Shown here one piece after another: positions 7,956 through 51,278 of a DNA stretch of 64,000 bases. Under the pieces are notes generated by a model, which was not told where the DNA came from, made no database searches, and saw nothing but the letters and a program-made list of their open reading frames with translations. A program made the position numbers and the translations under genes. Each line of letters starts with the position of its first letter. Within the stretch, counting starts at the first letter, position 1. This DNA comes from Acidimicrobiia bacterium (GTDB lineage: Bacteria; Actinomycetota; Acidimicrobiia; Spongiisociales; UBA11373). Location: assembly GCA_036478235.1 (NCBI GenBank), contig JAZGDZ010000040.1:12841-76840 (forward strand). The letters run 5' to 3'.

Positions 7956-8215
7956 GCTCGTTCATCTGCAGTCGAAGATGATAGGCCGAGTCCCGGCACG
8001 GGTCGAAGATCGGAGCCTGCAGACCTGCGACCGCCGGACAGGCACGAGGCCGGCGCAGCTGCGCCGGCCTCGAGATCCCTTCCTCTGGTCCGGAGCGGAT
8101 GATTCCGGACCACGAATTAATGAGGAGATAGCCCGCTAAGACCATAAGCCGAACCGCGACGCGCTACAACGGCCATTTCCCGCGGTACCGACGGACTAGT
8201 CAAGCGGCGTGACCA

Positions 8216-8580
8216 AGAGCGTCCGCAAATAGGCGGACGCTCTTTCGCGATGTTGATGGCTCTTCGCCGTACGGCTCATCGCTGGTTTGGCTACGGCTTT
8301 CGGGATTTGGCTCCGTATTTGGCTGCGGCGTTCGGGTCCTATCCGGCCCCGAGACGCCTCCGCATGGATGAGCCGCCCTGCGGGCGGCGCTCCGTTCTAC
8401 GTTCGAGTCCTGCTCGGCCTGGAAACGCCTCCGCATGGTGGATCCGCCCTTCGGGCGGACAGCGTTCTACCTGTTCGGCCCCGAAGAGCCTCCGCATGGT
8501 TGTGCCGCCTTGTAGGCGACGCAGTGCTCTACTGCCCGAGGGCCCCAGCCCCAGGCCGCCGAGTCCGCGCCTATCGGCGC
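8216..8580. repeat. Array of modular intergenic repeats. A hairpin module (AGAGCGTCCGC-loop-GCGGACGCTCT, 8216-8243), then an ATGGCTCTTCGCCGTACGGCTCATCGCTGG module, then three tandem ~60-bp units (8338-8527) each with a GCCGCCC-TGC-GGGCGGC hairpin, then a GGCCGCCGAGTCCGCGCCT module
   Basis: Direct reading. The same modules recur at 12048-12179, 36378-36600, 40323-40670 (reverse complement), 50955-51085 and 51923-52092. Confidence 0.9.
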
Positions 8581-33703: not shown

Positions 33704-36331
33704 CTACGTGACTGCTCCATGACACTTCTTGTACTTCTTGCCGCTGCCGCAGTGGCACGGATCATTGCGGCCGATCTTGTCGCCGGCGTTTGCCTGACGC
33801 TTGAAGGCGGCCCCGCCGGTGCCGCCGAGCCTCACGACGGGGTCGGGACGGTTCTGCTGTTCGACCACCTGGCTGTGGAACAGGTACCGGACACTGTCGA
33901 CCTTGATGCTGTCCACCATGTCGGCGAACATGTCGTAGGCCTCCCGCTGATACTCGGTCAGAGGGTCGCGCTGCCCCATGGCGCGCAACCCGATGCCCGA
34001 CCGCAGGTAGTCCATCTCGGCGAGTTGCTCCCGCCACTTGGTATCGACGATCGACAGCACCACGGTTCGCTCCAGAGTGCGCAGCAGTTGGGCCCCGAGC
34101 TGCTCGCCTCGAGCCGTGTACACCTCCTGGGCATCCTCCGCCACCCGGTCCACGACGGCCTCACGGTCGTCGCCCGGCTTCACCAGGTCGCCGACCTCCA
34201 GCCGAATGGGATAGATGACCTCCAGCCTTCGATGCAGCTCCTCGGCTTCCCATTGCTCCGGAGCGATCTCATCCGAGATGGCGTTGCCGGTCTCGATGTC
34301 GATCACCTCGTCGACCCAATCGCGCACCAGCTGTTCGGTGTCGCGGCCGGTGAGAACCCGCTGCCGCCAGTCGTAGATCACCTCACGCTGACGGGTCATC
34401 ACCTCGTCGTACTTGAGGACGTTCTTGCGAATCTCGAGGTTCTGCGACTCCACCTGGCGCTGGGCCCTTTCGATGGCGTTGGTCACCATCTTGGCCTCGA
34501 TCGGGACGTCTTCGGGGATACGCAGCCGTTTCATGATCGATTGCACGCGATCGGTGGCGAAGCGACGCATGAGATCGTCCTCGAGCGAGAGGTAAAAGCG
34601 CGACTCGCCCGGATCGCCCTGGCGCCCCGACCTTCCCCGGAGCTGGTTGTCGATGCGACGCGCTTCGTGCCGCTCGGTGGCGAGCACGTAGAGCCCGCCG
34701 AGTTCGATCACCTTCGCCATCTCGGCGTCGGTCTCGGCCTTGAGAGTCTCGAAGGCCTCGGAATAGACCCCTTCGTACTCTTCGTCGTCGGGGGAGGTCC
34801 CGCGTTTGCTCATCTCCTGAACGGCCATCGCCTCCGGGTTGCCGCCGAGCCGGATATCGACGCCGCGTCCCGCCATGTTCGTGGCCACGGTGATCGCGCC
34901 CAAGCGACCAGCCTGGGCGATGATCGGACCCTCTCGTTCGTGTTGTTTGGCGTTGAGGACTTCGTGGGGAATCCCCTTCTTCTTGAGGACCGCGGACAGC
35001 CGCTCGGAGTTCTCGATGCTGATCGTGCCGACGAGCACCGGCTGCCCGCTGGCGTGACGCTCCACGAGGTCCTCGGTGAGAGCATTGAACTTGGCGTCCT
35101 CGGTCATGTAGACGAGATCGGGCTGGTCGAGGCGGACGATCGGCTCGTTGGTCGGAACCACCACGACGTCGAGACCGTAGATCTCGTTGAACTCACCGGC
35201 CTCTGTGATCGCCGTCCCGGTCATGCCCGCCAGCTTGTCGTACAACCGGAAGTAGTTCTGCAGCGTGATGGTCGCCAGCGTCTGGTTCTCCTCCTTGATC
35301 CGGACGCCCTCCTTGGCTTCGATCGCCTGATGAAGGCCCTCGCTGTAGCGCCTCCCTTCGAGGATCCTGCCGGTGAACTCGTCGACGATCTTCACCTCGC
35401 CGTTGGCTACCACGTAGTCGATGTCCCGCTGGTAGAGAGCCTTGGCTTTCAAGGCCACGTCGAGATGGTGGATGAAGTCCACGTTGGTGTGGTCGTACAT
35501 GTTCTCGATGCCCAGGAAGCGTTCGACCTGAGTGACTCCCCCCTCAGTCGTGATCACCTGCCGCTTCCCTTCGTCCACCTCGTAGTGGGTCTCGGCGTGG
35601 AGCCTTTGAGCCATGCGGGCGAAGTCGCGATACCACTTGGCAGTCTCGCCAACCCGGCCGCTGATGATGAGCGGAGTCCTCGCCTCGTCGATGAGGATGG
35701 AGTCCACCTCGTCGACGATCGCGTACTGGTGCCCCCTTTGCACCATGTACTTCGGGTCCATGGCCATGTTGTCCCGCAGGTAGTCGAAACCGAACTCGTT
35801 GTTGGTGCCGTAGGTCAGGTCGGCCGCATACGCCGGCCTGCGCTCCTCCGGCTGCATGTCGGCCTGGATGAGCCCGACGGTCAGCCCAAGGAACAGGTAC
35901 ACCCCGCCCATCCACTCGGCGTCCCGCTTGGCGAGATAGTCGTTGACCGTTACGACGTGTACGCCCTTGCCCTCCAAAGCGTTGAGGTAAACCGGCATGG
36001 TGGAAACGAGCGTCTTGCCCTCCCCGGTGCGCATCTCGGCGATCGCATGGCGGTGAAGGGCTGCCGCGCCGATGACCTGGACATCGAAGTGGCGCTGGCC
36101 GAGCACCCGCCGGGCGGCCTCGCGTACGACGGCAAACGCCTCGGCCTCGATGTCGTCCAGCGTCTCCCCGTCCGCCAGCCGCCTGCGAAACTCATCGGTC
36201 TTGGCCTTGAGAGCCTCGTCCCCGAGAGCCTCAATCTCGGGCTCGAACCCGTTGACGGCGTCGGCGACCCTCTCGAGCTCTTTGAGCTTCTTGCCCTCGC
36301 CCGCGCTCAGGATCTTCTTCAGCAGGGCCAT
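33704..36331 (-). CDS. secA: Preprotein translocase ATPase SecA
   Basis: [20 protein letters not shown]... DEAD motor and a C-terminal Zn finger [14 protein letters not shown]. The ORF-track N-terminal extension ([12 protein letters not shown]...) is encoded by an intergenic repeat module, so the start is set at ATG 36331. Confidence 0.93.
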
Positions 36332-36377
36332 GAGAACGCCATCATATCGGTGGGGTCGCGCTGCGGAATAGAGGGGT

Positions 36378-36600
36378 AAAGAGGGCGCACCGACAGGCGC
36401 GGACTCGGCGGCCTGGGGCTGGGGACCCCGGGCCGTACAGCGATGAGCCGTAAGGCGAAGAGCCATCGACAAAGAGGGCGCGCCGCTAGGCGCGGACTCG
36501 GCGGCCTGGAGCGAGCGCCGTAGCCAAACCAGCGATGAGCCGTAAGGCGAAGAGCCATCAGCATCGGTTGAGAGTCCGCTTCATAAGCGGACACTCAACG
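36378..36600. repeat. Two tandem ~94-bp copies of repeat module (AGAGGGCGCRCCG-AGGCGCGGACTCGGCGGCCTGG...CAGCGATGAGCCGTAAGGCGAAGAGCCATC) plus a terminal hairpin (TTGAGAGTCCGC-ttcataa-GCGGACACTCAA)
   Basis: Direct reading. Homologous to 50955-51085 and, in reverse complement, to 8216-8300. Confidence 0.85.
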
Positions 36601-37920
36601 CTCTATGCGCTCGCCGTGTTCCAGGGACTCGAGAAGCGATCCGGGATCCACTCCGGCCTCTTCCGCCATCATCTGCGACACCACCGTGACGCCGGTCAGA
36701 TCGATCGGTTCAGGCGTCTCCAGCACCTCACCCTCGGCCGAACGCACCACGAACCCGCGGCGCATTCCTTCGCCGACGGCGCTCACCAGCACCACCCGTC
36801 CCCCCGGGATCTGCAGCAGCGATCCCGGCGGGTATTCGCCGGTCATCTGGATGAAGAGCCTGAGCAGGTCCGGGTCGTAAGCGGTCCCGGCGCCCTCGAG
36901 GAGCACCCGCAGCGCCTCGTTGGGGGTGCGGGCCGAGCGATAGCTGCGGAAGGAGGTGATCGCATCGTATGAATCGGCGATGGCCACGATCCGGCTGAAG
37001 AGGTGCGGCCTCCTGCCGGCGAGGTCCGGATAGCCCGTGCCATCGATTCGAGCATGATGCTCGAGCGCGATAATCGCAGCTTTCTCCTGTCCGCTGCCGG
37101 CCGCGGCCATGATGGTCGCCGCGCCCTCCTGCGGGTGCAGCCGGACCTGGGCCCAGTCCTCGTTCGACAGCCGGCCCGGGTTGCGCAGAGCGGCCTCGTC
37201 GACGATGACCCGGCCGATGTCGTGAAGCAGCGCCCCGAGGCCGAGCTGCCTCACGTCCTCGCGCTGGAAGCCGGCGAACCGGCCCAGAGCCATCGAAAGA
37301 AGGCACACATTCACCGAGTGGTAGTAGGTGACCTCGTCGTGGTTCTGCACAGTTGCCAGGAGCATGGATGAGCCGGCGTCAGCAGCTCCTCCATCGATGA
37401 ATTCGTCCACCGCCTCCATCACCCCGTCGAGGTGGAGAGACTCACCGCGCGAAACACCCCGCAGCGTGTCGAGGGAGAAGGCGTACGACCGGCGGAGGCC
37501 GTGCAGCGGCCGAATCTCGAGGTCAGACGGGCGTAGCGACCGTTCGTTGAGCCGAACGGTCCCCTCGGCCGGAAGGTCCTCCGAAACCCCCGCCACCAGC
37601 GCTGCCAGATCGGCGAGGTCGTTGCTGCTCGTGCCCCGCAACATGGTGATCGAGTCAATCTTGAGATCCTTGAGGTCGGCCAGCATGGAATCGAACTCGG
37701 TGCTCGCATGGGCCAGCATCTTGCGACCGAGATAGAAGGCGTCCCCGACTATGGACAGCACCGCCTCGTCGGGACCCGCCACGAGGACTTCGGCTGAGCC
37801 ACTCAAGGCGGCGACGGCATCCTGAACGGCGGATTCCGAGTCGCCACGGGCCATCCGCTGGGAAGCGTTGGACAACGCCCTCAGGAAGTTGCGCCCCAGA
37901 AGTTCACTCATTCCGGCCAC
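36595..37920 (-). CDS. HD-GYP domain c-di-GMP phosphodiesterase with an N-terminal uncharacterised sensor domain
   Basis: HD...ALLHDIGRV...ALEHHARIDGTGYPD are the HD-GYP signatures. 441 aa. Confidence 0.8.
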   Translation of the reverse strand: MAGMSELLGRNFLRALSNASQRMARGDSESAVQDAVAALSGSAEVLVAGPDEAVLSIVGDAFYLGRKMLAHASTEFDSMLADLKDLKIDSITMLRGTSSNDLADLAALVAGVSEDLPAEGTVRLNERSLRPSDLEIRPLHGLRRSYAFSLDTLRGVSRGESLHLDGVMEAVDEFIDGGAADAGSSMLLATVQNHDEVTYYHSVNVCLLSMALGRFAGFQREDVRQLGLGALLHDIGRVIVDEAALRNPGRLSNEDWAQVRLHPQEGAATIMAAAGSGQEKAAIIALEHHARIDGTGYPDLAGRRPHLFSRIVAIADSYDAITSFRSYRSARTPNEALRVLLEGAGTAYDPDLLRLFIQMTGEYPPGSLLQIPGGRVVLVSAVGEGMRRGFVVRSAEGEVLETPEPIDLTGVTVVSQMMAEEAGVDPGSLLESLEHGERIER

Positions 37921-38960
37921 CTCTCGAGTTCGGCCCGAGCCGCGTCGCGTACAGCCTTGGAGGCTCCGAGCGCAAACTTTCTCGAGGAAAGCCGCTCCAG
38001 GGCCTCACGCACCTGCGGGCCGCGCCGCTCGGCGATGATGTCCACCAGTCGGCGGGCGTCGTCGGCCGAACCGGTCCCTGCCTCGAGTGCCTCGACGATT
38101 CCGGGCACCACCGAGTCTGCCGCGCTCGCCCTGAGGAGGGAGGCCGCCGCCTGGCGGACCCGGGGACTCGAGTCGCTCAGGAATCGCAGCACCCCGGGCA
38201 CCGCACCGTCGCCCTTGAGAGCGGCAATGGCCCGGATCACCTCGACCCGCACACGATCGTCCTCGTGGTCGGCGATGGATTCGAGAGCCGGCAGCGCCGA
38301 GACCCGGCCAGCCTTTCCGATCGCGGTGGCGACGTTGCGAACGACAAACCAGCGCGAATCCGCCAACCGCGCAGTGAGATGGCGGGCATCACCCCTCCCT
38401 GCCATGCCGAGGAACTCGACGATGTGACGACGGTTGACGATCGATTCTTCGACAACGATCTGTCCGATCAGGTACTCGACCAGCGGCTCGCCCCAGGCAG
38501 CCAGTACCGGAGCCGCCGAAACGGGGCTGTCCGTCTCGACCAGGCCGGTGACGAGATCGGAGAACAGCTCGTCGCCGGAGAGATCGCGCCGCGCCTCGGC
38601 CACCAGGTGGGAGAACTCCTCGGCGAAGACCGGAGCCGAGGCGAGCGCTCGCATCCACATCCCCGCCTTCTCGTACTCACGGGCACGGACGGCGCCTGCC
38701 ACCTTGCCGGTCCAGATGCGCAACAGCCGTCGAAAGCGGTCGGCGCGATGCTCCACGCGGAGTAGATCCCGGAACACCCCGATGCTGGCCACGAGATCCT
38801 CCGGCCCATCGGGAAGCTGGGCGAGAACCTTGTCGCGTAGGTCGGCATCCGCGGCCGCGGTATCCACCGAGTCGAAGACCGCCCGAACGCGCTGCAGTTG
38901 TTCGTCGTGCCAGTCGACGCCGACAGTATCGAGTTCCGCCGAGCCGTTGCCGCCGGCCAT
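37908..38960 (-). CDS. HEAT-repeat domain protein
   Basis: 350 aa of repeated ~30-aa alpha-helical units (VRNVATAIGKAGRVSALPALESIADHEDDRVRVEVIRAIAAL...SPRVRQAAASLL). Overlaps the HD-GYP start by 13 nt. Confidence 0.6.
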   Translation of the reverse strand: MAGGNGSAELDTVGVDWHDEQLQRVRAVFDSVDTAAADADLRDKVLAQLPDGPEDLVASIGVFRDLLRVEHRADRFRRLLRIWTGKVAGAVRAREYEKAGMWMRALASAPVFAEEFSHLVAEARRDLSGDELFSDLVTGLVETDSPVSAAPVLAAWGEPLVEYLIGQIVVEESIVNRRHIVEFLGMAGRGDARHLTARLADSRWFVVRNVATAIGKAGRVSALPALESIADHEDDRVRVEVIRAIAALKGDGAVPGVLRFLSDSSPRVRQAAASLLRASAADSVVPGIVEALEAGTGSADDARRLVDIIAERRGPQVREALERLSSRKFALGASKAVRDAARAELERWPE

Positions 38961-38962
38961 GG

Positions 38963-39610
38963 CTACAGCTCGATCAGTTTCTCGCGGACGGCGTACAGAA
39001 CCGCTTCGTTGCGGGAATGCAATCCGAGCTTGTCGAGGATGTTTCGCACGTGGTTCTTCACGGTGTTCTCACTGATGAATAGCACGTGACCGACTTGCTT
39101 TGATGTCATTCCGCGGGCGACATGCTTGAGCACCTCGATCTCGCGACCGGTCAGAGTGGGCTTGCGCGGGGCCAGAAAGTCCTGGTGCCGGAGCAGCTGG
39201 TTGAGGACATCGAGCAGCTTGCCGGTCATCGTCGGCGAGATCGACGCTCCGCCGTCCGCCACATCATGGAGGTCGCGGGCGAGGTCGGAGAAGGGAACGT
39301 CCTTGACGAGGTAGCCGCGGGCACCTGCCTTGATGCACGCCAGGAGATCTTCCTCGGACTCGCTCGCCGTCAGCATCACGATCGCCGTTGCCGGAGCCAC
39401 GGCGAGGATCTTCTCGACCGCCTCGAGCCCGGAGACGCCCGGCATCAGGATGTCGAGCACGACTAGATCGGGCTGTTCGGCTTCGGCCAGCGACACGGCG
39501 TGCTCGGCGTCCGCCGCCTCACCGCACACCGTGAAGCCCGCCCCGGAGAGGGCGGCCGAGAGACCGGTCCGGAACAGGTCTACGTCGTCTACGACTATTA
39601 CACGGCTCAC
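38963..39610 (-). CDS. NarL/LuxR-family response regulator (REC + HTH), orphan
   Basis: MSRVIVVDDVDLFRTGL...DLVVLDILMPGVSG... then GREIEVLKHVARGMTSKQVGHVLFISENTVKNHVRNI. ATGA overlap with hpf. Confidence 0.88.
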   Translation of the reverse strand: MSRVIVVDDVDLFRTGLSAALSGAGFTVCGEAADAEHAVSLAEAEQPDLVVLDILMPGVSGLEAVEKILAVAPATAIVMLTASESEEDLLACIKAGARGYLVKDVPFSDLARDLHDVADGGASISPTMTGKLLDVLNQLLRHQDFLAPRKPTLTGREIEVLKHVARGMTSKQVGHVLFISENTVKNHVRNILDKLGLHSRNEAVLYAVREKLIEL

Positions 39611-40159
39611 TGTGGTTCGATCAGCCCGAGCGTGCCTCCGCGGCGCCGGTACAACACTCCGTACCGGTCTGTCTCCGCGTTGAGGAACAGATAGAAGCTG
39701 TGTCCAAGCGTCTCCATCTGAAGGGCTGCCTCCTCTGGCGTCATCGGCTTGACGGCGAACTGCTTGATCCGCTCGATGCGGAGTCCGCGGTCTTCATCGT
39801 TGGTTACTTCGACGCCAGAGGCGGGGCCATTGAGTCGTTTCTCACCGCGCCGGTGCCGGGAGATGAGCCGCTCCTTGAGCCGCCGCAAGGTTCGCTCGAA
39901 TTTGTCCACAGCCCTGTCGAGAGCGGCACGCTCGTCGAACTCGGCCGCTTCGACTCTCACCGTGTGACCTGCCGCCGCTGCGGTGATCTCGACGCGGAAT
40001 CGTTCCGAAGCGATTCTGGGGTTGTGCTCCTCGGAGAATTCGACGTCGGCGAACGCAGCATCGTCAAACACCCTGGACGCATGGATGACCTTCTCTTCGG
40101 CAAGGATCCTCAGGTCGTCGTCGAGGGACATGTGATTGCCGTGGATACGAACCTCCACC
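39607..40159 (-). CDS. hpf: Ribosome hibernation promoting factor, long form
   Basis: VEVRIHGNHMSLDDDLRILAEEKV... plus a C-terminal dimerisation domain. GTG start 40159 with AAGGAG 5 nt upstream. The ORF-track 5' extension was rejected. Confidence 0.8.
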
Positions 40160-40322
40160 GTGTCTCCTTTCGCAGACGCGTCAGAACACCGTTTGGGCGC
40201 GGTCGGTGTGGCGAGCGTTGGGCCGGTAACGATGCGGGGCTCTTGGCACCCGTCCTCCCGTAGCTCTCGGTCCCCGTCTCGGGGGCTCACTACATCCTAC
40301 GGATGATCCGGGAGTTGCGTTG

Positions 40323-40670
40323 GCCAGGAGTCTGCTGAGTGATGCCGTTGCTCAGATCGTGGAACACAGCGCCGCCCGCAGGGCGGCTCAATCATGCGGA
40401 GGCGCTTCGGGGCCGAGCAGGACCCGAACGCCGCAGCCAAACCGGGCCAGGCGCGCCAGTCGCCAGGATCTCGGGTTCGCCACTCCTCGCGCAGGAATGG
40501 CGGGACCGTGGACACCGCTAGTGGCGATGTAGATCACAGCGCCGCCCGCAGGGCGGCACGTCCATGCGGAGGTGCTTCGGGGTCGAGCAGGACTCGAACG
40601 CCGCAGCCAAATACGTAGCCAAATACGGAGCCAAATCTGGACGTCGAGATGAGTGACATGTATTGCTCAG
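40323..40670. mobile_element. MITE-like non-autonomous element (~350 bp) with ~17-bp imperfect terminal inverted repeats (GCCAGGAGTCTGCTGAGT ... TGCTCAGCGGGCTCCCAG) and an internal tandem duplication of a ~130-bp hairpin unit
   Basis: Termini read directly. Interior is the reverse complement of the 8280-8420 modules. A shorter derivative lies at 51923-52092. Confidence 0.7.
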
Positions 40671-40681
40671 CGGGCTCCCAG

Positions 40682-41704
40682 TCAGCAGGGTCCCACCGCA
40701 CACGAGGGAGGCGGTACCGGGGCCCGGGCAACATGATCGACGAACCTCTTGATCGACGACACGAGGGATACGTCGATTTTCACCCGGTGACCCTGGGGCA
40801 GCCATATGTACCGGACGCTGGTACCCAGGTCACAACCGAACCAGAATCCCGCCTGGCCGCCCGTGTGCGTGGTCGTGATCGGATCCTCTGCGGAGCAGCC
40901 ATTCCGATCGACCCAGCGCCGGACGGTCTCTTCGGCAGACGGATATGGCGCCCACACCTCGTTCAAGACTGACAGGCTGCCGCCTCTGAAGGAGACGGCT
41001 CGATCGTAGATGCCGTGAACGTGCAGGACGCTCACGGGGTATGACGGGGTGCAAGCGGAGGGGTCCCAGGGTTCGACACCCGAGATGGCAACCACCGCGG
41101 TGACCAGATCAGAGATGTCGCAGGCGAGCCGGTAGGCCATGAAGGCGCCGTTGGAGAGCCCCACAACGATCACCCGGCTGGGGTCTACGGGGTAGCGCTC
41201 GATGGCCTCCGTGATGAATTGCCGAAGATAGGACACGTCGTCGTTGCCCCGCAGATAGCGATCGCAGCAGGTCGGAGTCGCGTTCCAGTACGGCCGCCCC
41301 AGAGCGTCGGTCAGACCGGCGGGGGCGACGATGATCCAGCCCGATGTCACCGCGACCTGCCCGATGGCAAAGTTGTTGACGACGTCCTCGACGCGTCCGG
41401 AATACGAATGCAGCAGCACGATGAGGGGCCGCTCCCGGTCTCCCAGATCCGGCGGCAGCAGCTTTCCAGGGATCCGCTCCTCGGAAGAGGCCTCCACGGG
41501 CGCGGCGCTCTCTGGTTCGCTCTCACCCCGCAGGATGACAGGATCCTGACGGCCACCCCGGTCCTCCTCTGCCCCGGCACTCTCGGGGATGGAGGCAGCA
41601 CCCGGACGCGGCGCCACCACCAGGCCGATCGTCGCGGCACAGACCGCCAAGACGAGTGCGGAGCGAACCTTGCGATGGTGAGAAAGAAATCGCATGGGTG
41701 TCAT
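40682..41704 (-). CDS. Secreted alpha/beta-hydrolase (PHB-depolymerase/LpqC-type esterase)
   Basis: Signal peptide, GLSNGAFM nucleophile elbow, and an esterase_phb-like fold. Confidence 0.75.
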   Translation of the reverse strand: MTPMRFLSHHRKVRSALVLAVCAATIGLVVAPRPGAASIPESAGAEEDRGGRQDPVILRGESEPESAAPVEASSEERIPGKLLPPDLGDRERPLIVLLHSYSGRVEDVVNNFAIGQVAVTSGWIIVAPAGLTDALGRPYWNATPTCCDRYLRGNDDVSYLRQFITEAIERYPVDPSRVIVVGLSNGAFMAYRLACDISDLVTAVVAISGVEPWDPSACTPSYPVSVLHVHGIYDRAVSFRGGSLSVLNEVWAPYPSAEETVRRWVDRNGCSAEDPITTTHTGGQAGFWFGCDLGTSVRYIWLPQGHRVKIDVSLVSSIKRFVDHVARAPVPPPSCAVGPC

Positions 41705-41713
41705 CCCACCCTA

Positions 41714-42286
41714 TTACACACCCGGATCACGGCCGAGCCGACGGCACGCGGCCGTCGCGGTCACCGCCCGGACAACCCCGGATACGGCTGTGGCCGCCCT
41801 GATGGTGGATCCGGTCGTGACGACATCGTCCACGAGCACCGATCCCGGAGGGATCGGCGCGGCCCGGGCGAACCCGGGCACACCGCGCCGCTGACCGCTT
41901 GCCGATCCGGCTCGTCGCCGGCGCCACAGGCCCGGCCGTAACGCCCGCACGACCGGGAGACCCGACAATGCAGCCACGGCCTCGGCCAATTCGACAGCCG
42001 AATCGACGCCGTAGCGGCGGCGGCGCACAGAGACCCGGGGAAGCGGGATCAGCGCCGTACAGTCCGGAGGAAGCAGCGGCACCATCGCCCGAGCGAGTCG
42101 TTCGGCGACACCTGACACCGCCTCGTATTTCAGTCGGTGAACGAGTCTCCTGGCCGCGCCCTCGTGCGCAAAGGCACTCCGCACCAAGACACGCCCGACG
42201 AGCCGGTCCGGAGCCGGCGCCAGAGTCGCCAAGCAATACCGACACAGGGAGTGCGCAGAAGCTCGGCGGCAGGCGACACACGTCAT
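41714..42286 (-). CDS. comF: ComF family protein (phosphoribosyltransferase-like)
   Basis: N-terminal Cys cluster (CVACRRASAHSLCRYC) and a C-terminal PRT motif VLVDDVVTTGST. Conserved upstream of hpf/secA in actinobacteria. Confidence 0.75.
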   Translation of the reverse strand: MTCVACRRASAHSLCRYCLATLAPAPDRLVGRVLVRSAFAHEGAARRLVHRLKYEAVSGVAERLARAMVPLLPPDCTALIPLPRVSVRRRRYGVDSAVELAEAVAALSGLPVVRALRPGLWRRRRAGSASGQRRGVPGFARAAPIPPGSVLVDDVVTTGSTIRAATAVSGVVRAVTATAACRRLGRDPGV

Positions 42287-42445: not shown

Positions 42446-44233
42446 ATGCCGCTCGACGTTCAGGTGACGCGGGAACGGCAGCGGCGACGCCGGCTGCGCC
42501 GAATCGCATGGCTTCTCGCCCCCTTGGTGACCTGGCTGTGGCTACGCCTGATCTTCGACACCCCGGTCTCGCCCGGATGGCCCGAACTCCCGCCGGAGGC
42601 CATGTTCTGGCTTCCCGGGGTCCTCATCATCCTGCTCCTCGGTGTGGTGCTGATTGCTCCGATGATCGGCAACGGACGGTCTCCGGAGGTCGTGTTCCTC
42701 CCGGAGCAGATCGACGTCTCGTTCGAGGACGTCAAGGGACTCGGGCCGGTGCTGACGGAGGTTCGTCACACGCTCGACGTCTTCTTGAACCATCAGCAGT
42801 TTCGCGATCAGATGGGCGGGCAGCCGCGTCGCGGCATCCTGTTCGAGGGCCCGCCGGGCACGGGCAAGACCCACACCGCCAAGGCGCTTGCCAGGGAAGC
42901 GGGGGTGCCGTTTCTCTTCGTCTCGTCGACGGCATTCCAGAGCATGTGGTACGGCGCCACCGCCCGCAAGATTCGGGCGTACTTCCGCCGCTTGCGCAAG
43001 GTCGCCCGGCAGGAGGGCGGAGCGATTGGGTTCATCGAGGAGTTCGACGCCATTGGAGGACGCCGCGGCAGCATGCAGCGGGCGCTACCGGCGGAGGACC
43101 GGCTGAATCGGGCTGCAATCTCCGAAGGTATCGGTGGAGTGGTCAACGAACTGCTCGTGCAGATGCAGTCGTTCGACGACCCTCCGCGTAGCGTCCGGTT
43201 CGGTAACGCCCTCAAGCGAACGGTAAACAAGTTGCTGCCGTCCCACCGCCACTTCAGGACGAGCAAGCCTCAGTTCGCCAACATCCTGCTCATCGGTGCG
43301 ACCAACCGGGCCGAGGCGCTCGATCCCGCCCTGCTGCGTCCCGGCCGATTCGATCGCGTGTTTCACTTCCCCCTCCCGGCCCGCAAGGAAAGGCGCGAGC
43401 TGATCGACTTCTTCCTGACGACCAAGGCCCACGACGACACGGTCGATGACACAGCCCGCGACGATCTCGCCGCGACCACGATGGGGTACTCGCCGGCTTC
43501 CCTGGAGCGGCTCTTCGACGAGGCACTCCTCTTCGCGTTACGGGAGGACCGCGACAGCCTGGGGGTGACCGATCTGCACAGGGCGCGCCTGGATGTGGAG
43601 ATCGGTCTGGCCGAGCCCACCGAGTACACCGAGGAGGAGCGGGAAAATATCGCCGTCCACGAAGCCGGGCACGCGGTAGTCGCCTATTTGGCGGGCAAGG
43701 GCCGGAAAATGAACTTCCTGTCGATCGTCAAGCGCAAGGATGCCCTCGGGCTGCTGGCTCACAGCGAGACCGAGGAGCGCTACACGAAGCGGCGAAGCGA
43801 GACTCTGGCACTGATGCAAATAGCGCTCGGCGGCATGGTGGCAGAGGAGCTCTTCTTTGGAGAGTCGGGAACCGGCCCGGTGAACGACTTGGCGACGGCG
43901 ACCAACATCGCGGTCGAAATGGTCGGATCCATGGGTCTCGGATCCTCTTTGATCTCCTTCCGAGCAGTCGATCAAGGCATGGTCGGCGGAAATCTCGTCG
44001 CCAAGGTTCTGGCCGACGACAAGGCCCGGGACGCGGTGGACGCGCTGCTACACGAACAGAAGGCAGTGGTTGTCGCCCTGCTGAGGGATAATCGGCATCT
44101 CATCGAGGCGTTGCGCGACGCCCTTGTCGACGGTGACGAACTCGCCGGACGCGAGATCGTCGAAGTCCTCGACGCGGCGCGCGATGGGCAGGAAGCAACG
44201 ATCGATCTGAGGGAGGAAGGTGTTAGGAGTTAG
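42446..44233 (+). CDS. Divergent FtsH-family AAA+ zinc metalloprotease (short periplasmic loop, insertion in the AAA module, M41 HEAGH site)
   Basis: 2 TM, Walker A GPPGTGKT, Walker B IGFIEEFD, SRH IGATNRAEALDPALLRPGRFDR, HEAGHAVVAY. Strong RBS GGAGGAGACAGGAGAAAGGGAGGG. Confidence 0.8.
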   Translation: MPLDVQVTRERQRRRRLRRIAWLLAPLVTWLWLRLIFDTPVSPGWPELPPEAMFWLPGVLIILLLGVVLIAPMIGNGRSPEVVFLPEQIDVSFEDVKGLGPVLTEVRHTLDVFLNHQQFRDQMGGQPRRGILFEGPPGTGKTHTAKALAREAGVPFLFVSSTAFQSMWYGATARKIRAYFRRLRKVARQEGGAIGFIEEFDAIGGRRGSMQRALPAEDRLNRAAISEGIGGVVNELLVQMQSFDDPPRSVRFGNALKRTVNKLLPSHRHFRTSKPQFANILLIGATNRAEALDPALLRPGRFDRVFHFPLPARKERRELIDFFLTTKAHDDTVDDTARDDLAATTMGYSPASLERLFDEALLFALREDRDSLGVTDLHRARLDVEIGLAEPTEYTEEERENIAVHEAGHAVVAYLAGKGRKMNFLSIVKRKDALGLLAHSETEERYTKRRSETLALMQIALGGMVAEELFFGESGTGPVNDLATATNIAVEMVGSMGLGSSLISFRAVDQGMVGGNLVAKVLADDKARDAVDALLHEQKAVVVALLRDNRHLIEALRDALVDGDELAGREIVEVLDAARDGQEATIDLREEGVRS

Positions 44234-44273
44234 GAGTCAGGTTTTCCTAATACCTAATACCTAATATCTAGGT
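44222..44273. terminator. Bidirectional terminator hairpin built from heptamer repeats (GTTAGGA x2-3 / CCTAATA x3) between the convergent ftsH-like gene and ahcY, with both stop codons inside it
   Basis: tgttaggagttaggagtcagg-ttttc-ctaatacctaatacctaatatctagg. The arms are near reverse complements. Locally AT-rich. Confidence 0.7.
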
Positions 44274-45515
44274 CCCTTGCTCCCAGCTCGCCAGATACTC
44301 CTCCTGCTCCGGCGTGAGCGTCTCGAGCCCTCCACCGATCGCTTCGAGGGCGATCGCAGCCACCTCGACATCGATGCTCTCGGGTAGCCGATGAACCCTG
44401 TTCTCAAGTGCGGCACCTTCGCTGATCAGCCACTCGGCCGCCAGCGCCTGATTGGCGAACGACATATCCATGACCTCGGCAGGATGTCCCTCGGCCGCAC
44501 CGAGGTTGACGAGGCGTCCTTCGGCGATCACGTGGAGTCGCCGGCCGTCGGGCATGGTCCACTCGTCGAGCTCGTGGCGCATCCGACGCTTTCCGGTCGC
44601 GGTGGCTTCGAGGTGGCCCAGATCGAGCTCCACGTCGAAGTGGCCGGCGTTGGCGAGAATCGCACCGTCCTTCATCAGATCGAAGTGCTCGCCCCGCAGC
44701 ACCCGTAAGTTCCCGGTGACGGTGATGAACACGTCGCCCGATCGGGCGGCCTCATCGGCCGTAGCAACGGTGTATCCCTCCATCGCGGCGGAGAGCGCCC
44801 GCACCGGATCAATCTCGACCACGACGACTTTCGCCCCCAGGCCCGCTGCTCGAGCAGCCACCCCGACCCCACAGTCACCGAACCCGACGACGACGACAGT
44901 CTTACCGGCAATGAGGAGGTTGGTGGCCCGGATGATCCCATCCATGGCGGACTGGCCGGTCCCGTGACGATTGTCGAACAGATGCTTGGTGGCCGAGTCG
45001 TTTACGGCGACGACCGGGAACCGGATGACCCCGTCCTGTTCCATAGCGCGCAAACGAATGACTCCGGTCGTGGTCTCCTCCGTGGATCCAATCGGTTGCT
45101 GATCGGGACGCTCCTTGAGCAGCATGGTCACAAGGTCAGCGCCGTCGTCCATAGTCACGTGAGGGCCTGCGTCCAGGACCGCCCGAAGATGTGAGTAGTA
45201 CGTTTCGTTGTCCTCGCCGCGGACGGCGAACACCGGAATCCCGTCGGCCACCAGCGCAGCGGCGACGTCATCCTGGGTCGAGAGTGGATTCGAGGCGCAC
45301 AGCATGACCTCCGCCCCTCCGGCGCGCAGCGTGGCCATCAGGTTGGCGGTCTCCGAGGTCACGTGGAGACAGGCCCCGATCCGCTTCCCGGCGAGCGGAG
45401 TCTCCTTTTCGAATCGCTCCCGGATGGAGGCCAGGACGGGCATCCTCCCCCGAGCCCACTCGATCCGGAGGGCACCCGCTTCGCCCAGGGACAGATCGGC
45501 TATGTCGTAGTTCAT
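44268..45515 (-). CDS. ahcY: Adenosylhomocysteinase
   Basis: 415 aa, NAD-binding GFGDCGVG, strong SAHH similarity throughout. Confidence 0.95.
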   Translation of the reverse strand: MNYDIADLSLGEAGALRIEWARGRMPVLASIRERFEKETPLAGKRIGACLHVTSETANLMATLRAGGAEVMLCASNPLSTQDDVAAALVADGIPVFAVRGEDNETYYSHLRAVLDAGPHVTMDDGADLVTMLLKERPDQQPIGSTEETTTGVIRLRAMEQDGVIRFPVVAVNDSATKHLFDNRHGTGQSAMDGIIRATNLLIAGKTVVVVGFGDCGVGVAARAAGLGAKVVVVEIDPVRALSAAMEGYTVATADEAARSGDVFITVTGNLRVLRGEHFDLMKDGAILANAGHFDVELDLGHLEATATGKRRMRHELDEWTMPDGRRLHVIAEGRLVNLGAAEGHPAEVMDMSFANQALAAEWLISEGAALENRVHRLPESIDVEVAAIALEAIGGGLETLTPEQEEYLASWEQGT

Positions 45516-46507
45516 TCGGACTCTCCTGCGAGACGGATCTTGAAGTCTTCGATGATGTCGACCGGCATCGGGTCGGACGCCGATCGCTCGGCGAGAGCGA
45601 GCGATACGAGGTCGCCCACGACGGTCAGCGAGAACAGGCGGGCAACAGTACTGATTCCGCGCGAAGCCACAACTTCCGCCCCATCGACCATTCCTTCCAT
45701 CAGCCTTCTGGTCAGCCGGCCGCGAAGCGAGACGCGGGGATGGTCACCGGAGTCGCTGAGGAACACCGCCCCGAACGAGCCGGCCGAGAAGTCGGGGTGG
45801 GCCGTCCATCCGACGATGTCGTTGTGATCGGCTTCGGGGAGCGGCACCCAGGCCGCCGGGGCCTTGGCGTTCTCGTTGATCTGGGTCTTCCACCGGTTGG
45901 CGGCTACCGATGCCGGGCCGCTTCCCCCGTATACCACCGTCATCCGGCCTGCCAGAGCCTCGGCCAGGCGGGCTGCAGTCTCCGGCCCCTCGCCGTCGAG
46001 GATCGCCCCTGTGACGTCTGCGGCCTCCCGCAAGTCTTCCGATTGCGGCCCGACTATCCCGGCAGATTCCAATACTCGGAGGGTGGCTCCGACCAAGTGA
46101 CCGAAGGCGGCGCGCGGCTGGGGGCAGGGAGGGACCACGACCGTCGAAAACCCCACTTCCGCGGCCCGCTCTGCCATCGCTCCTCCCGTCGTCACCCCCA
46201 CGAGCGCGAACCCTCCGGCGAGGGCGGCCGACACCGAAGTCGCCGTCTCTTCGGTATTGCCGCTGTGTGACACCGCGACGACCAGATCCTCCGATCCCAC
46301 CCAACGAGGCAGGTCATAGGACTTGTGAACGACGACCCGGCGACCGGCCTCCTCGGCGACGACCGCGGCGACATCGCCGGCGATCCCGGACCCACCCATG
46401 CCGGCGACTATCGCTGCCTCGGCCGAGGGCGTGTCAGGAATCTGGAGATCGGCCGCCCAGCGGAGCTGCTCGGGGAGCTGCTGCACGAGTTGCAGCATCG
46501 TCGTCAT
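45512..46507 (-). CDS. SIS-domain bifunctional phosphoglucose/phosphomannose isomerase
   Basis: Two SIS domains (GMGGSGIAGD, SHSGNTEET). Position is equivalent to manA next to manB. Start ATG 46507 (MTTMLQL). Confidence 0.75.
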   Translation of the reverse strand: MTTMLQLVQQLPEQLRWAADLQIPDTPSAEAAIVAGMGGSGIAGDVAAVVAEEAGRRVVVHKSYDLPRWVGSEDLVVAVSHSGNTEETATSVSAALAGGFALVGVTTGGAMAERAAEVGFSTVVVPPCPQPRAAFGHLVGATLRVLESAGIVGPQSEDLREAADVTGAILDGEGPETAARLAEALAGRMTVVYGGSGPASVAANRWKTQINENAKAPAAWVPLPEADHNDIVGWTAHPDFSAGSFGAVFLSDSGDHPRVSLRGRLTRRLMEGMVDGAEVVASRGISTVARLFSLTVVGDLVSLALAERSASDPMPVDIIEDFKIRLAGESE

Positions 46508-46673
46508 TCGGGGTCGGGGCGGTAGGCGGATTCGAGCAACATCACCGGGATCCCGTCCACGACCGGGAAGTGCAGTCCGCACCCGGTGCAAACGAGATCC
46601 CCCTCGCCCGCTTCGAGCGTGGAACGGCACTCGATGCATCGCAGGATCTCGAGCAACTCCTCAGGAACCGCCA
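46504..46673 (-). CDS. Trm112-like small zinc-ribbon protein (DUF343), 56 aa, not in the ORF track
   Basis: Hand translation (GTG 46673) gives MAVPEELLEILRCIECRSTLEAGEGDLVCTGCGLHFPVVDGIPVMLLESAYRPDPE*. ATGA overlap with the downstream gene. Confidence 0.7.
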
Positions 46674-50914: not shown

Positions 50915-50954
50915 GGTCTCAGCAGGCTAACGCCGCGGCCTGCCAAAGGGTTCA

Positions 50955-51085
50955 GAGAGGGCGCGCCGACAGGCGCGAACTCGGCGGCCTGGGGCTGGGG
51001 CCCCCGGGCCGCACAGCGATGAGCCGTATGGCGAAGAGCCATCGACAATGCTGAGAGCGTCCGCCTATTTGCGGACGCTCTCAGC
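50955..51085. repeat. Copy of repeat module (AGAGAGGGCGCGCCGACAGGCGCGAACTCGGCGGCCTGGGGCTGGGG...CAGCGATGAGCCGTATGGCGAAGAGCCATCGACAA) plus a 15-bp-stem hairpin GCTGAGAGCGTCCGC-ctattt-GCGGACGCTCTCAGC
   Basis: Direct reading. The hairpin abuts or overlaps the stop codon of the 51081-51278 gene, so it is a likely terminator. Confidence 0.85.
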
Positions 51086-51278
51086 GGCGTCGGGCCTTCT
51101 CCAGGACGGTCGTCAGGTCCAGGACCTTGGCGCCCGACTTCCACCAGCGATGCTCACACCGGTGGCAGGAGTTGAACGTCACATCAGACTCGTCCGGAAG
51201 AGTGATCTCGATCTGGATCGCATCGGTGGCCCCACACTCGGAGCACTCGATGGTCACGGGCTCGCTTCTCGGGCTCAT
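51081..51278 (-). CDS. Small 4-Cys zinc-ribbon protein (65 aa)
   Basis: MSPRSEPVTIECSECGATDAIQIEITLPDESDVTFNSCHRCEHRWW... CxxC-x22-CxxC. ATGA-coupled to the upstream gene. Confidence 0.55.
   Translation of the reverse strand: MSPRSEPVTIECSECGATDAIQIEITLPDESDVTFNSCHRCEHRWWKSGAKVLDLTTVLEKARRR

Follow-up and report, generated by a model that had tools for sequence, protein, structure and literature searches.

A predicted hpf operon conserved in Acidimicrobiia combines a ribosome hibernation factor, an orphan NarL-type regulator and a HEAT/HD-GYP gene pair

Organisation of the hpf locus

The DNA analysed here is a 64,000-nucleotide stretch (the window) of contig JAZGDZ010000040.1 from an Acidimicrobiia bacterium, in which four consecutive minus-strand open reading frames (ORFs), within 36595-40290, encode a long-form ribosome hibernation-promoting factor (HPF; gene hpf), an orphan response regulator (RR) of the NarL type, a HEAT-repeat protein and an HD-GYP protein (Table 1). 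Family scans and our own reading of the sequence bear out the initial annotation of this locus as regards the identities of the genes, their order, their tight packing and their position between comF/hpf and secA. The hpf product matches PF02482 (1.8e-15; residues 47-142 of the long ORF), PF16321 (4.7e-22; 77.9 bits, cut-off 25) and TIGR00741 (53.8 bits, above the cut-off of 40.9), and possesses both the N-terminal S30AE/sigma-54 modulation domain and the C-terminal dimerisation domain that define the long HPFs. The start of the longest hpf ORF (40290) falls within the leader, and the real start is GTG 40158-40156, one nucleotide away from the position first given (40159); it is preceded by AAAGGAG at 40170-40164 and yields a protein whose length agrees with that of its relatives (182-184 aa).

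The regulator contains a Response_reg domain (PF00072, 3.6e-26) followed by GerE (PF00196, 9.2e-20), and the closest solved proteins are NarL (1a04, full-length, 7e-37) and DevR/DosR (3e-29). It has the features of a NarL/FixJ-type regulator, i.e. an acidic pocket, a phospho-acceptor Asp, a Thr/Ser and a Lys in the receiver and a GerE/LuxR helix-turn-helix at the C terminus. The receiver pocket residues D8, D9, D53, T/S81 (T81 in the window) and K103 are kept in 36-37 of 38 loci, and the recognition helix hardly varies. A crude regular-expression scan found no histidine-kinase H-box motif in the window; because the complete phospho-acceptor pocket has been kept, a kinase encoded elsewhere is presumed.

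The genes are joined by very short junctions, several of which differ from those first described. hpf and the regulator gene do overlap by 4 nt (stop 39609-39607, start 39610), the shared motif being GTGA and not ATGA. An overlap had also been assigned to the regulator and HEAT genes (38960/38963), where the sequence reads TAG (38965-38963)-CC-ATG (38960), a 2-nt gap. The HEAT and HD-GYP genes overlap as proposed, most likely through an ATGA (ATG 37911, stop 37910-37908, -4 nt); the 13-nt overlap of the initial annotation would hold only if GTG 37920 were the start. ATG 37911 is the preferred and most likely start, since the resulting 438 aa fits most of the closest full-length homologues. The HD-GYP gene ends at TGA 36597-36595 and is followed by secA, whose start is most likely ATG 36331, judging by alignment with relatives. 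Thus the operon does precede secA in order but is not directly adjacent to it: 263 nt separate the HD-GYP stop from ATG 36331, a spacer that contains a strong hairpin, two copies of a dispersed repeat and a promoter that appears to belong to secA.

Table 1. Positions of the genes, protein domains and candidate regulatory features in the window
Feature	Position	Strand	Basis
hpf, long-form ribosome hibernation-promoting factor, 183 aa, GTG start	39607..40158	-	family scan, relatives' length
Orphan NarL/LuxR-type response regulator, 215 aa, GTG start	38963..39610	-	Response_reg + GerE
HEAT-repeat protein, 350 aa, short form without ancestral N-terminal domain	37908..38960	-	HEAT_2
HD-GYP protein, 438 aa	36595..37911	-	HD_5/HD family match
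HD-GYP protein domains: N-domain 1-132; core about 191-357; C-terminal beta about 362-414	37516..37911 (N-domain)	-	AlphaFold model
Putative -10-like promoter hexamer of the hpf operon, TAGGAT	40294..40299	-	upstream alignment
5' leader of hpf, about 130-135 nt	40159..40287	-	alignment of upstream regions
Strong stem-loop spanning the HD-GYP stop codon	36567..36602	-	folding against shuffles
secA, 875 aa from ATG 36331, full set of SecA domains	33704..36331	-	family scan
-10 box of secA, TATGAT, 9 nt before ATG 36331	36341..36346	-	alignment with relatives
Two tandem repeat copies (about 92 nt each) between HD-GYP stop and native secA promoter region	36378..36562	-	repeat comparison
Two 83-nt direct repeats upstream of the hpf promoter, 89% identical	40359..40441, 40529..40611	-	repeat comparison
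PHB-depolymerase-like esterase gene between comF and hpf	40682..41704	-	NF050058, Abhydrolase_2
comF-like phosphoribosyltransferase gene, conserved upstream neighbour	41714..42286	-	TIGR00201 1.8e-9, below cut-off

Conservation of the gene order and its two modules

An alignment of the HEAT protein was searched against one genome per GTDB species, which gave 80 loci (numbered L below) that were annotated against the window proteins. The close homologues are all in uncultured Acidimicrobiia, the nearest species-representative genome being the metagenome-assembled genome (MAG) OFTM344 (L007), with 76-87% amino-acid identity. The synteny comparison suggested with the initial annotation recovers the complete set of four genes, in unchanged order, from 33 species-level Acidimicrobiia genomes, within the wider order ftsH (divergent), comF, hpf, RR, HEAT, HD-GYP, secA, prfB; two more genomes are cut by contig ends, and further metagenomic contigs show the same gene order. 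Across this clade identity drops to about 41% for the HD-GYP protein and about 31% for the HEAT protein, and the junctions stay short: hpf/RR is -4 nt in 39/39 evaluable loci, RR/HEAT lies between -4 and +4 nt in all loci but one, and HEAT/HD-GYP is mostly -4 nt. The four-gene arrangement is therefore the standard state of the clade and not a one-off insertion, and its conservation goes far beyond chance.

Two apparent departures from this arrangement were examined and set aside. What looked like an extra gene between the regulator and HEAT genes in L031-L043 belongs to the HEAT ORF itself, which is longer there, at about 625-650 aa. A fusion of the regulator to the HEAT protein (P0326, 591 aa), considered as Rosetta-stone evidence, comes from a locus (L090, ENA contig_115440) in which ftsH, HD-GYP and secA are fragmented, and most likely results from frameshifts in an error-prone assembly. 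A MAG labelled Kiloniellaceae (Alphaproteobacteria) holds the full cassette with 74-86% identity to the window (L008, CAXMOL010000101.1) and is probably a binning contaminant.

The initial annotation treated the regulator, HEAT and HD-GYP genes as three signalling genes interposed together. Our results divide them instead between two modules, hpf with its regulator and HEAT with HD-GYP. In the Acidimicrobiia locus L087, hpf and the regulator gene, with their 4-nt overlap, are followed directly by secA, and HEAT and HD-GYP are absent. L087 is sister to the cassette-bearing L089 in a neighbour-joining tree of SecA, which indicates that HEAT and HD-GYP were lost together. Outside Acidimicrobiia, an HD-GYP gene lies directly downstream on the same strand in 37 of 43 HEAT loci (contig ends account for three of the six exceptions); these loci represent Nitrospirota, Desulfobacterota, Acidobacteriota, Ignavibacteria, Nitriliruptorales and others. 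The junctions of these pairs are mostly -4 to -20 nt (26 pairs with called ORFs), and no further neighbour is conserved across phyla. HEAT and HD-GYP are thus an old two-gene unit, which stands downstream of hpf and the regulator gene throughout the Acidimicrobiia clade.

Two local neighbourhoods of the pair were seen in other phyla. In five related Nitrospirota loci (L064:2595-8753, L065, L069, L071 and L079) it lies directly downstream of tatC and near ffh (SRP54), so that protein-export genes are neighbours both there and, as secA, in Acidimicrobiia, which may be coincidence. In Desulfobacterota (L053:10077-10640, L056, L063, L072 and L073) a second small HEAT_2 gene (187-220 aa) lies past HD-GYP on the opposite strand.

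Properties of the HD-GYP and HEAT proteins

The HD-GYP protein has the HD-GYP fold and aligns with PmGH, PA4781 and V-cGAP3. Its metal ligands H198, H230-D231, H259, H285-H286 and D313 align with those of PmGH in the H...HD...H...HH...D pattern, and these motif residues do not vary among 28 relatives, apart from H230, for which three have Ile. The GYP loop (EHHARIDGTGYP) follows the HHExxDGxGYP pattern, D290 and G293-Y294-P295 being invariant; the Glu after the HH pair is Ala in the window protein and variable in the family. The catalytic motifs are thus intact and non-degenerate in a profile alignment, a point on which the initial annotation had made its proposal depend. The predicted substrate is c-di-GMP or a related cyclic dinucleotide; it could also be cyclic GMP-AMP (cGAMP), V-cGAP3 being among the nearest sequences.

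The three relatives with Ile in place of H230 (P0084, P0086 and P0091; loci L003, L022 and L025) form a lineage in which the motif reads LLIDIGR and the remaining motifs are intact. Together with its sister locus L028, which retains HEAT (L028:7839-8939) without HD-GYP, this lineage looks like a stepwise decay of the enzyme with the scaffold kept.

The AlphaFold model of the HD-GYP protein (predicted local distance difference test, pLDDT, 79) begins with an alpha/beta domain, continues through a helical linker into the HD-GYP core and ends in a small beta domain, and a Pfam search gave no match for either terminal domain. The model of the HEAT protein (pLDDT 86) is a plain solenoid; structure comparison as a route to its function was abandoned, as it matched generic solenoid/HEAT scaffolds only. 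Long HEAT partners (516-820 aa) occur in other phyla and in basal Acidimicrobiia lineages, and their N-terminal ~130 aa are homologous to the N-domain of the partner HD-GYP protein (hhalign 98.8%, E 7e-17). The 350-aa form of the window comes from a derived clade in which this domain was lost.

A profile of the HD-GYP N-domain compared with 1.84 billion cluster representatives recovered 115 proteins, most of them of HD-GYP size, and independently a long HEAT protein (P0392). In P0417 the N-domain is joined to a Ser/Thr kinase. Two proteins of about 1,420 aa (P0426 and P0440) combine GGDEF, a STAND ATPase, the N-domain and HEAT repeats, and a profile of the long-HEAT family matches their C-terminal part over 569 columns (99.6%, E 2e-24). 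BLASTP of P0426 against one long HEAT protein was not significant, the relationship being visible by profile-profile comparison only. These HEAT/GGDEF fusions tie the HEAT-type module to c-di-GMP enzymes independently of gene neighbourhood. P0426 and P0440 apparently contain two tandem copies of the N-domain. At the P0440 locus (L091:5732-9967) the fusion gene overlaps the next gene by 4 nt; this next gene was considered as an HD-GYP candidate and encodes instead a protein with HEAT_2 repeats and VWA.

Predicted transcription unit

Upstream of hpf, a TANNNT hexamer (TAGGAT, TACCAT, TACGAT, TATAGT or TAGAAT) shares one aligned column in an alignment of 17 lineages; mapped sequence by sequence in 19 lineages, among them the window, it stands 132-189 nt ahead of the start codon. 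A generic sigma-70 scan gave no full consensus site. The leader downstream of this putative -10 element carries a conserved ACGGGAGG..GGGTGCC block and the strong ribosome-binding site AAAGGAG noted above. Close to the 5' end of the leader, a short G+C hairpin (about 40286-40271 in the window) is shared by about 18 of 19 lineages and is weak (-9.7 against -7.3 kcal/mol in random windows); covariation support for it was sought with RNAalifold on a MAFFT alignment, which gave no consensus. An Rfam scan of the leader and spacers returned no known RNA or riboswitch at E <= 1.

secA is most likely a separate, nearly leaderless transcription unit across the clade, outside the hpf operon, because in about 20 lineages a conserved -10 box of its own precedes the ATG by 9 nt. 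In these lineages (e.g. L007, L001 and L039) a CGATAnnATG motif occurs at constant distance, without a Shine-Dalgarno sequence, and the box is kept even where just 28-58 nt lie between HD-GYP and secA. At the other end of this spacer, the stem-loop over the HD-GYP stop codon has a folding energy of -22.4 kcal/mol (z = -5.5), and 0/200 shuffles fold equally well. In this genome it probably marks the 3' end of the operon or insulates it, with termination as its predicted role. The closest relative, L007, lacks this hairpin and has a spacer of 45 nt, and the window keeps this native 45-nt spacer, with the secA promoter, behind inserted repeats. The putative transcription unit would therefore run from the promoter through the leader, hpf, the regulator, HEAT and HD-GYP to the hairpin.

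Proposed mechanism and alternative explanations

We consider it rather probable that this locus is a conserved Acidimicrobiia operon assembled from two older modules, which couples the synthesis of HPF to a regulator and to a HEAT/HD-GYP cyclic-dinucleotide module. A single promoter about 140 nt upstream of hpf would drive the operon, which in this genome would end at the hairpin after HD-GYP. Through the 4-nt overlap of hpf and the regulator gene, each burst of HPF synthesis would probably co-produce the regulator. A kinase from another locus would presumably switch this regulator, much as OhkA switches OrrA in Streptomyces, and the regulator would then alter transcription. The HEAT scaffold and the HD-GYP protein would most likely act together as a complex, hydrolysing c-di-GMP or a related cyclic dinucleotide, with the HEAT partner and the so far undescribed N-terminal domain in control. 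The growth arrest that induces hibernation would then also raise the levels of the regulator and the phosphodiesterase, so that translation shut-down, a transcriptional programme and a drop in the second messenger could be coordinated. Given the predicted co-transcription, a functional link between hibernation and the second messenger is plausible.

Several observations weigh against this proposal. HPF and the regulator do not need the phosphodiesterase, as is seen from the loss of the pair in L087, the loss of HD-GYP in L028 and the HD-to-ID variant (P0084, P0086 and P0091), and catalysis may not be the sole role of the HD-GYP protein; L028, with its HEAT gene alone, is sister to the lineage carrying that variant. 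The Glu aligned with PmGH E185 is off by one position, the Glu after the HH pair is not conserved, and the sequence of the predicted enzyme does not fix its metal stoichiometry or product. The window HEAT protein is without the shared N-domain, so that a complex formed through this domain is inapplicable there. Motifs of GGDEF, EAL or kinase proteins were not detected in a crude scan of the 64-kb window, and the targets of Streptomyces OrrA in chromatin immunoprecipitation (wblA, vnz_04640 and three others) do not include hpf. Promoters within the coding regions are possible and would divide the putative operon. Finally, close packing is common between unrelated genes in this compact genome, where about 7-8 of about 35 same-strand neighbour pairs have tight junctions (crude gene calls), and an overlap alone is weak evidence of a functional link. 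For this reason the functional argument is built on the conservation of order and junctions over deep divergence.

The loss of the pair in L087, the loss of HD-GYP in L028 and the HD-to-ID variant leave room for two alternatives, namely positional linkage without shared function and a sensory role of the HD-GYP protein. According to the first, which we regard as unlikely although it deserves serious attention, the pair landed in a permissive spot beside secA in a compact genome and stayed there. It agrees with the overlap of unrelated genes in the same window (AdoHcyase, 44268-45515, with 45512-46639), with the occurrence of HEAT/HD-GYP elsewhere without hpf or this regulator, with the loss of the pair from L087 while hpf and the regulator gene remained unchanged, and with the failure of OrrA to bind hpf in Streptomyces. 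However, the arrangement survives a fall in identity to about 41% (HD-GYP) and 31% (HEAT) with junctions of -4 to +4 nt, no lineage has a conserved promoter-sized gap between the regulator and HEAT genes, and long retention in one transcription unit usually means co-regulation.

A stronger version of the coupling that we propose is doubtful. It would make HEAT and HD-GYP a dedicated cyclic-dinucleotide unit wired to hibernation, in which the second messenger sets the timing or strength of HPF-dependent entry into and exit from dormancy, for example by contact of the HEAT scaffold with ribosomes or HPF, or through the co-encoded regulator. Such a unit would be built on the unrecognised N-terminal domain that is common to the partners and also occurs with GGDEF cyclases and a Ser/Thr kinase. 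If true, it would constitute a link from c-di-GMP to hibernation that is described in no paper we found.

Somewhat more doubtful still is the second alternative, in which the HD-GYP protein is mainly a sensor or receptor, or acts on another nucleotide (3'3'-cGAMP), and relays a signal with HEAT to a partner, possibly the regulator; the intact metal ligands and GYP loop of the window protein and of 25 of its 28 relatives argue against it. That HEAT/HD-GYP is an anti-phage defence or mobile accessory module inserted in a housekeeping locus is very improbable: the patchy distribution of the pair across phyla and the dispersed repeats flanking the operon in the window would suit it, but PADLOC gives a weak generic HEAT-ARM repeat match for HEAT and nothing for HD-GYP, the pair keeps one position throughout the clade, in agreement with the SecA tree, the region is uniform in composition, and the flanking repeats are missing in the nearest relative L007 and hence are later arrivals.

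The coupling of HPF synthesis to the regulator and the HEAT/HD-GYP module is of interest because ribosome hibernation and c-di-GMP signalling are two major switches of growth and persistence, and we found no paper linking them mechanistically. Their presence behind one putative promoter across a clade of abundant uncultured Actinomycetota provides a concrete, testable hypothesis. Independently of hpf, three leads emerge for the field of c-di-GMP enzymes, where most regulatory inputs remain unknown: a HEAT-partner gene that is widespread with one class of HD-GYP proteins, an N-domain without annotation that both partners share, and HEAT/diguanylate-cyclase fusions. Nothing in our analysis contradicts current understanding.

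Comparison with known systems

All four protein families are already known, as are a regulator beside hpf (in Streptomyces) and NarL-type control of a hibernation factor (in mycobacteria). The initial annotation held the arrangement to be undescribed at this conserved locus. This holds for the four-gene operon, on which our literature search found no paper, just as it found none on the HEAT/HD-GYP pair as a conserved unit, or on the shared N-terminal domain or its GGDEF fusion. It does not hold for the regulator beside hpf, which is not new for Actinomycetota since in S. coelicolor OrrA (SCO3008) adjoins hpf (SCO3009). The Streptomyces hpf/orrA locus lies near secA (SCO3005, three genes from OrrA) and mtrAB-lpqB, and it likewise has an orphan NarL/LuxR-type regulator, whose kinase OhkA is encoded elsewhere, next to a long-form hpf. 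The window regulator occupies the same position, beside hpf in the comF-hpf-secA region, and is by gene position a candidate OrrA orthologue; among the best 120 matches in a comparison of regulator homologues, all at least 74% identical, none bears a Streptomyces name. The targets of OrrA are wblA and a DUF5999 gene, and not hpf.

Mycobacteria share with the window a long HPF in a comF-hpf-secA neighbourhood. Their canonical long HPF is Rv3241c/MSMEG_1878 (RafS), and Rv3241c is adjacent to secA1 (Rv3240c); to our knowledge no regulator, HEAT or HD-GYP gene lies between hpf and secA1 there. The orphan regulator beside hpf, which in Streptomyces is OrrA, may be an old actinobacterial feature that was lost in Mycobacterium. 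The NarL-family regulator DosR controls an S30AE protein of mycobacteria, RafH (PMC3390679). Unlike the regulator of the window, whose gene overlaps hpf, DosR is encoded elsewhere and regulates this paralogue.

Compared with the characterised HD-GYP proteins PmGH (4mcw), PA4781 (4r8z), RpfG, V-cGAP3 (5z7c), DvhD (9rbz) and Bd1817 (3tm8), the window protein differs in that its regulatory domain is not REC, GAF or PAS. Instead, it has an N-terminal alpha/beta domain of ~130 aa, common with HEAT partners, and a small C-terminal beta domain; the Glu after HH is replaced and the equivalent of E185 is shifted by one position. Our literature search found no dedicated HEAT partner gene for PmGH, PA4781, RpfG, V-cGAP3, DvhD or Bd1817.

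The window HEAT protein resembles CpcE/F, NblB and YibA (HEAT_2 or phycobilisome (PBS)-lyase-type) in repeat type and solenoid fold. It scores 19-21 bits with the CpcE, CpeY and NblB equivalog models, far below their cut-offs of 300-600, and it differs from the PBS-lyase-type HEAT proteins by its non-photosynthetic host, its own conserved helical region (residues about 55-170) and its partnership with HD-GYP. In the rpoN-hpf-ptsN operon of Proteobacteria, hpf also stands alongside regulatory and signalling genes, and not ribosomal genes. The operon of the window differs from it, as the partners there are sigma-54 and PTS-Ntr, the hpf is of the short form and no cyclic-dinucleotide enzyme is present.

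Flanking genes and dispersed repeats

The comF-like gene is directly 5' of hpf in nearly all relatives. In the window an esterase gene (NF050058 2e-33, below the cut-off, with an Abhydrolase_2 match) and repeats separate the two, as the initial annotation had it, although what was named there a miniature inverted-repeat transposable element is made up of direct repeats from a dispersed family, and neither intergenic region yielded terminal inverted repeats with a length of 14 nt or more. Among the loci examined, an esterase gene occurs at this position only in the window and L007, with 48% identity, and the repeats are missing in L007, which makes both the esterase gene and the intergenic repeats recent; the former is a lineage-specific insertion into an otherwise fixed gene order. 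Base composition is even throughout the region.

The repeats belong to a modular dispersed family found at 8208-8440, 36378-36602, 40359-40611 and 50920-51100, with copies on both sides of the operon and none in L007. In its members a strong hairpin (GAGAGCGTCCGC..GCGGACGCTCTC, z -5.5 to -8) comes first, next a conserved 30-mer (GATGGCTCTTCGCCnTACGGCTCATCGCTG), and last a body of either of two kinds. Copies of the type that follows HD-GYP also occur at 8255-8284 and 51014-51043; each ~92-nt copy terminates in a GC hairpin and CCCTCTTT, and the type of hairpin seen at the HD-GYP stop also stands ahead of the repeat copies at 8208-8252 and 51040-51100. A relative of the 83-nt repeat at 8300-8394 is joined to the other repeat type, so that the copy at 8255-8394 is a hybrid, with its head from one type and its body from the other.

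Beyond comF, the window (42446-44233, plus strand) and almost all relatives have an FtsH-like gene for an AAA + M41 protease (595 aa) that diverges from the comF-hpf side, with AdoHcyase and a PGI-like gene after it, and the wider neighbourhood is also strongly syntenic.

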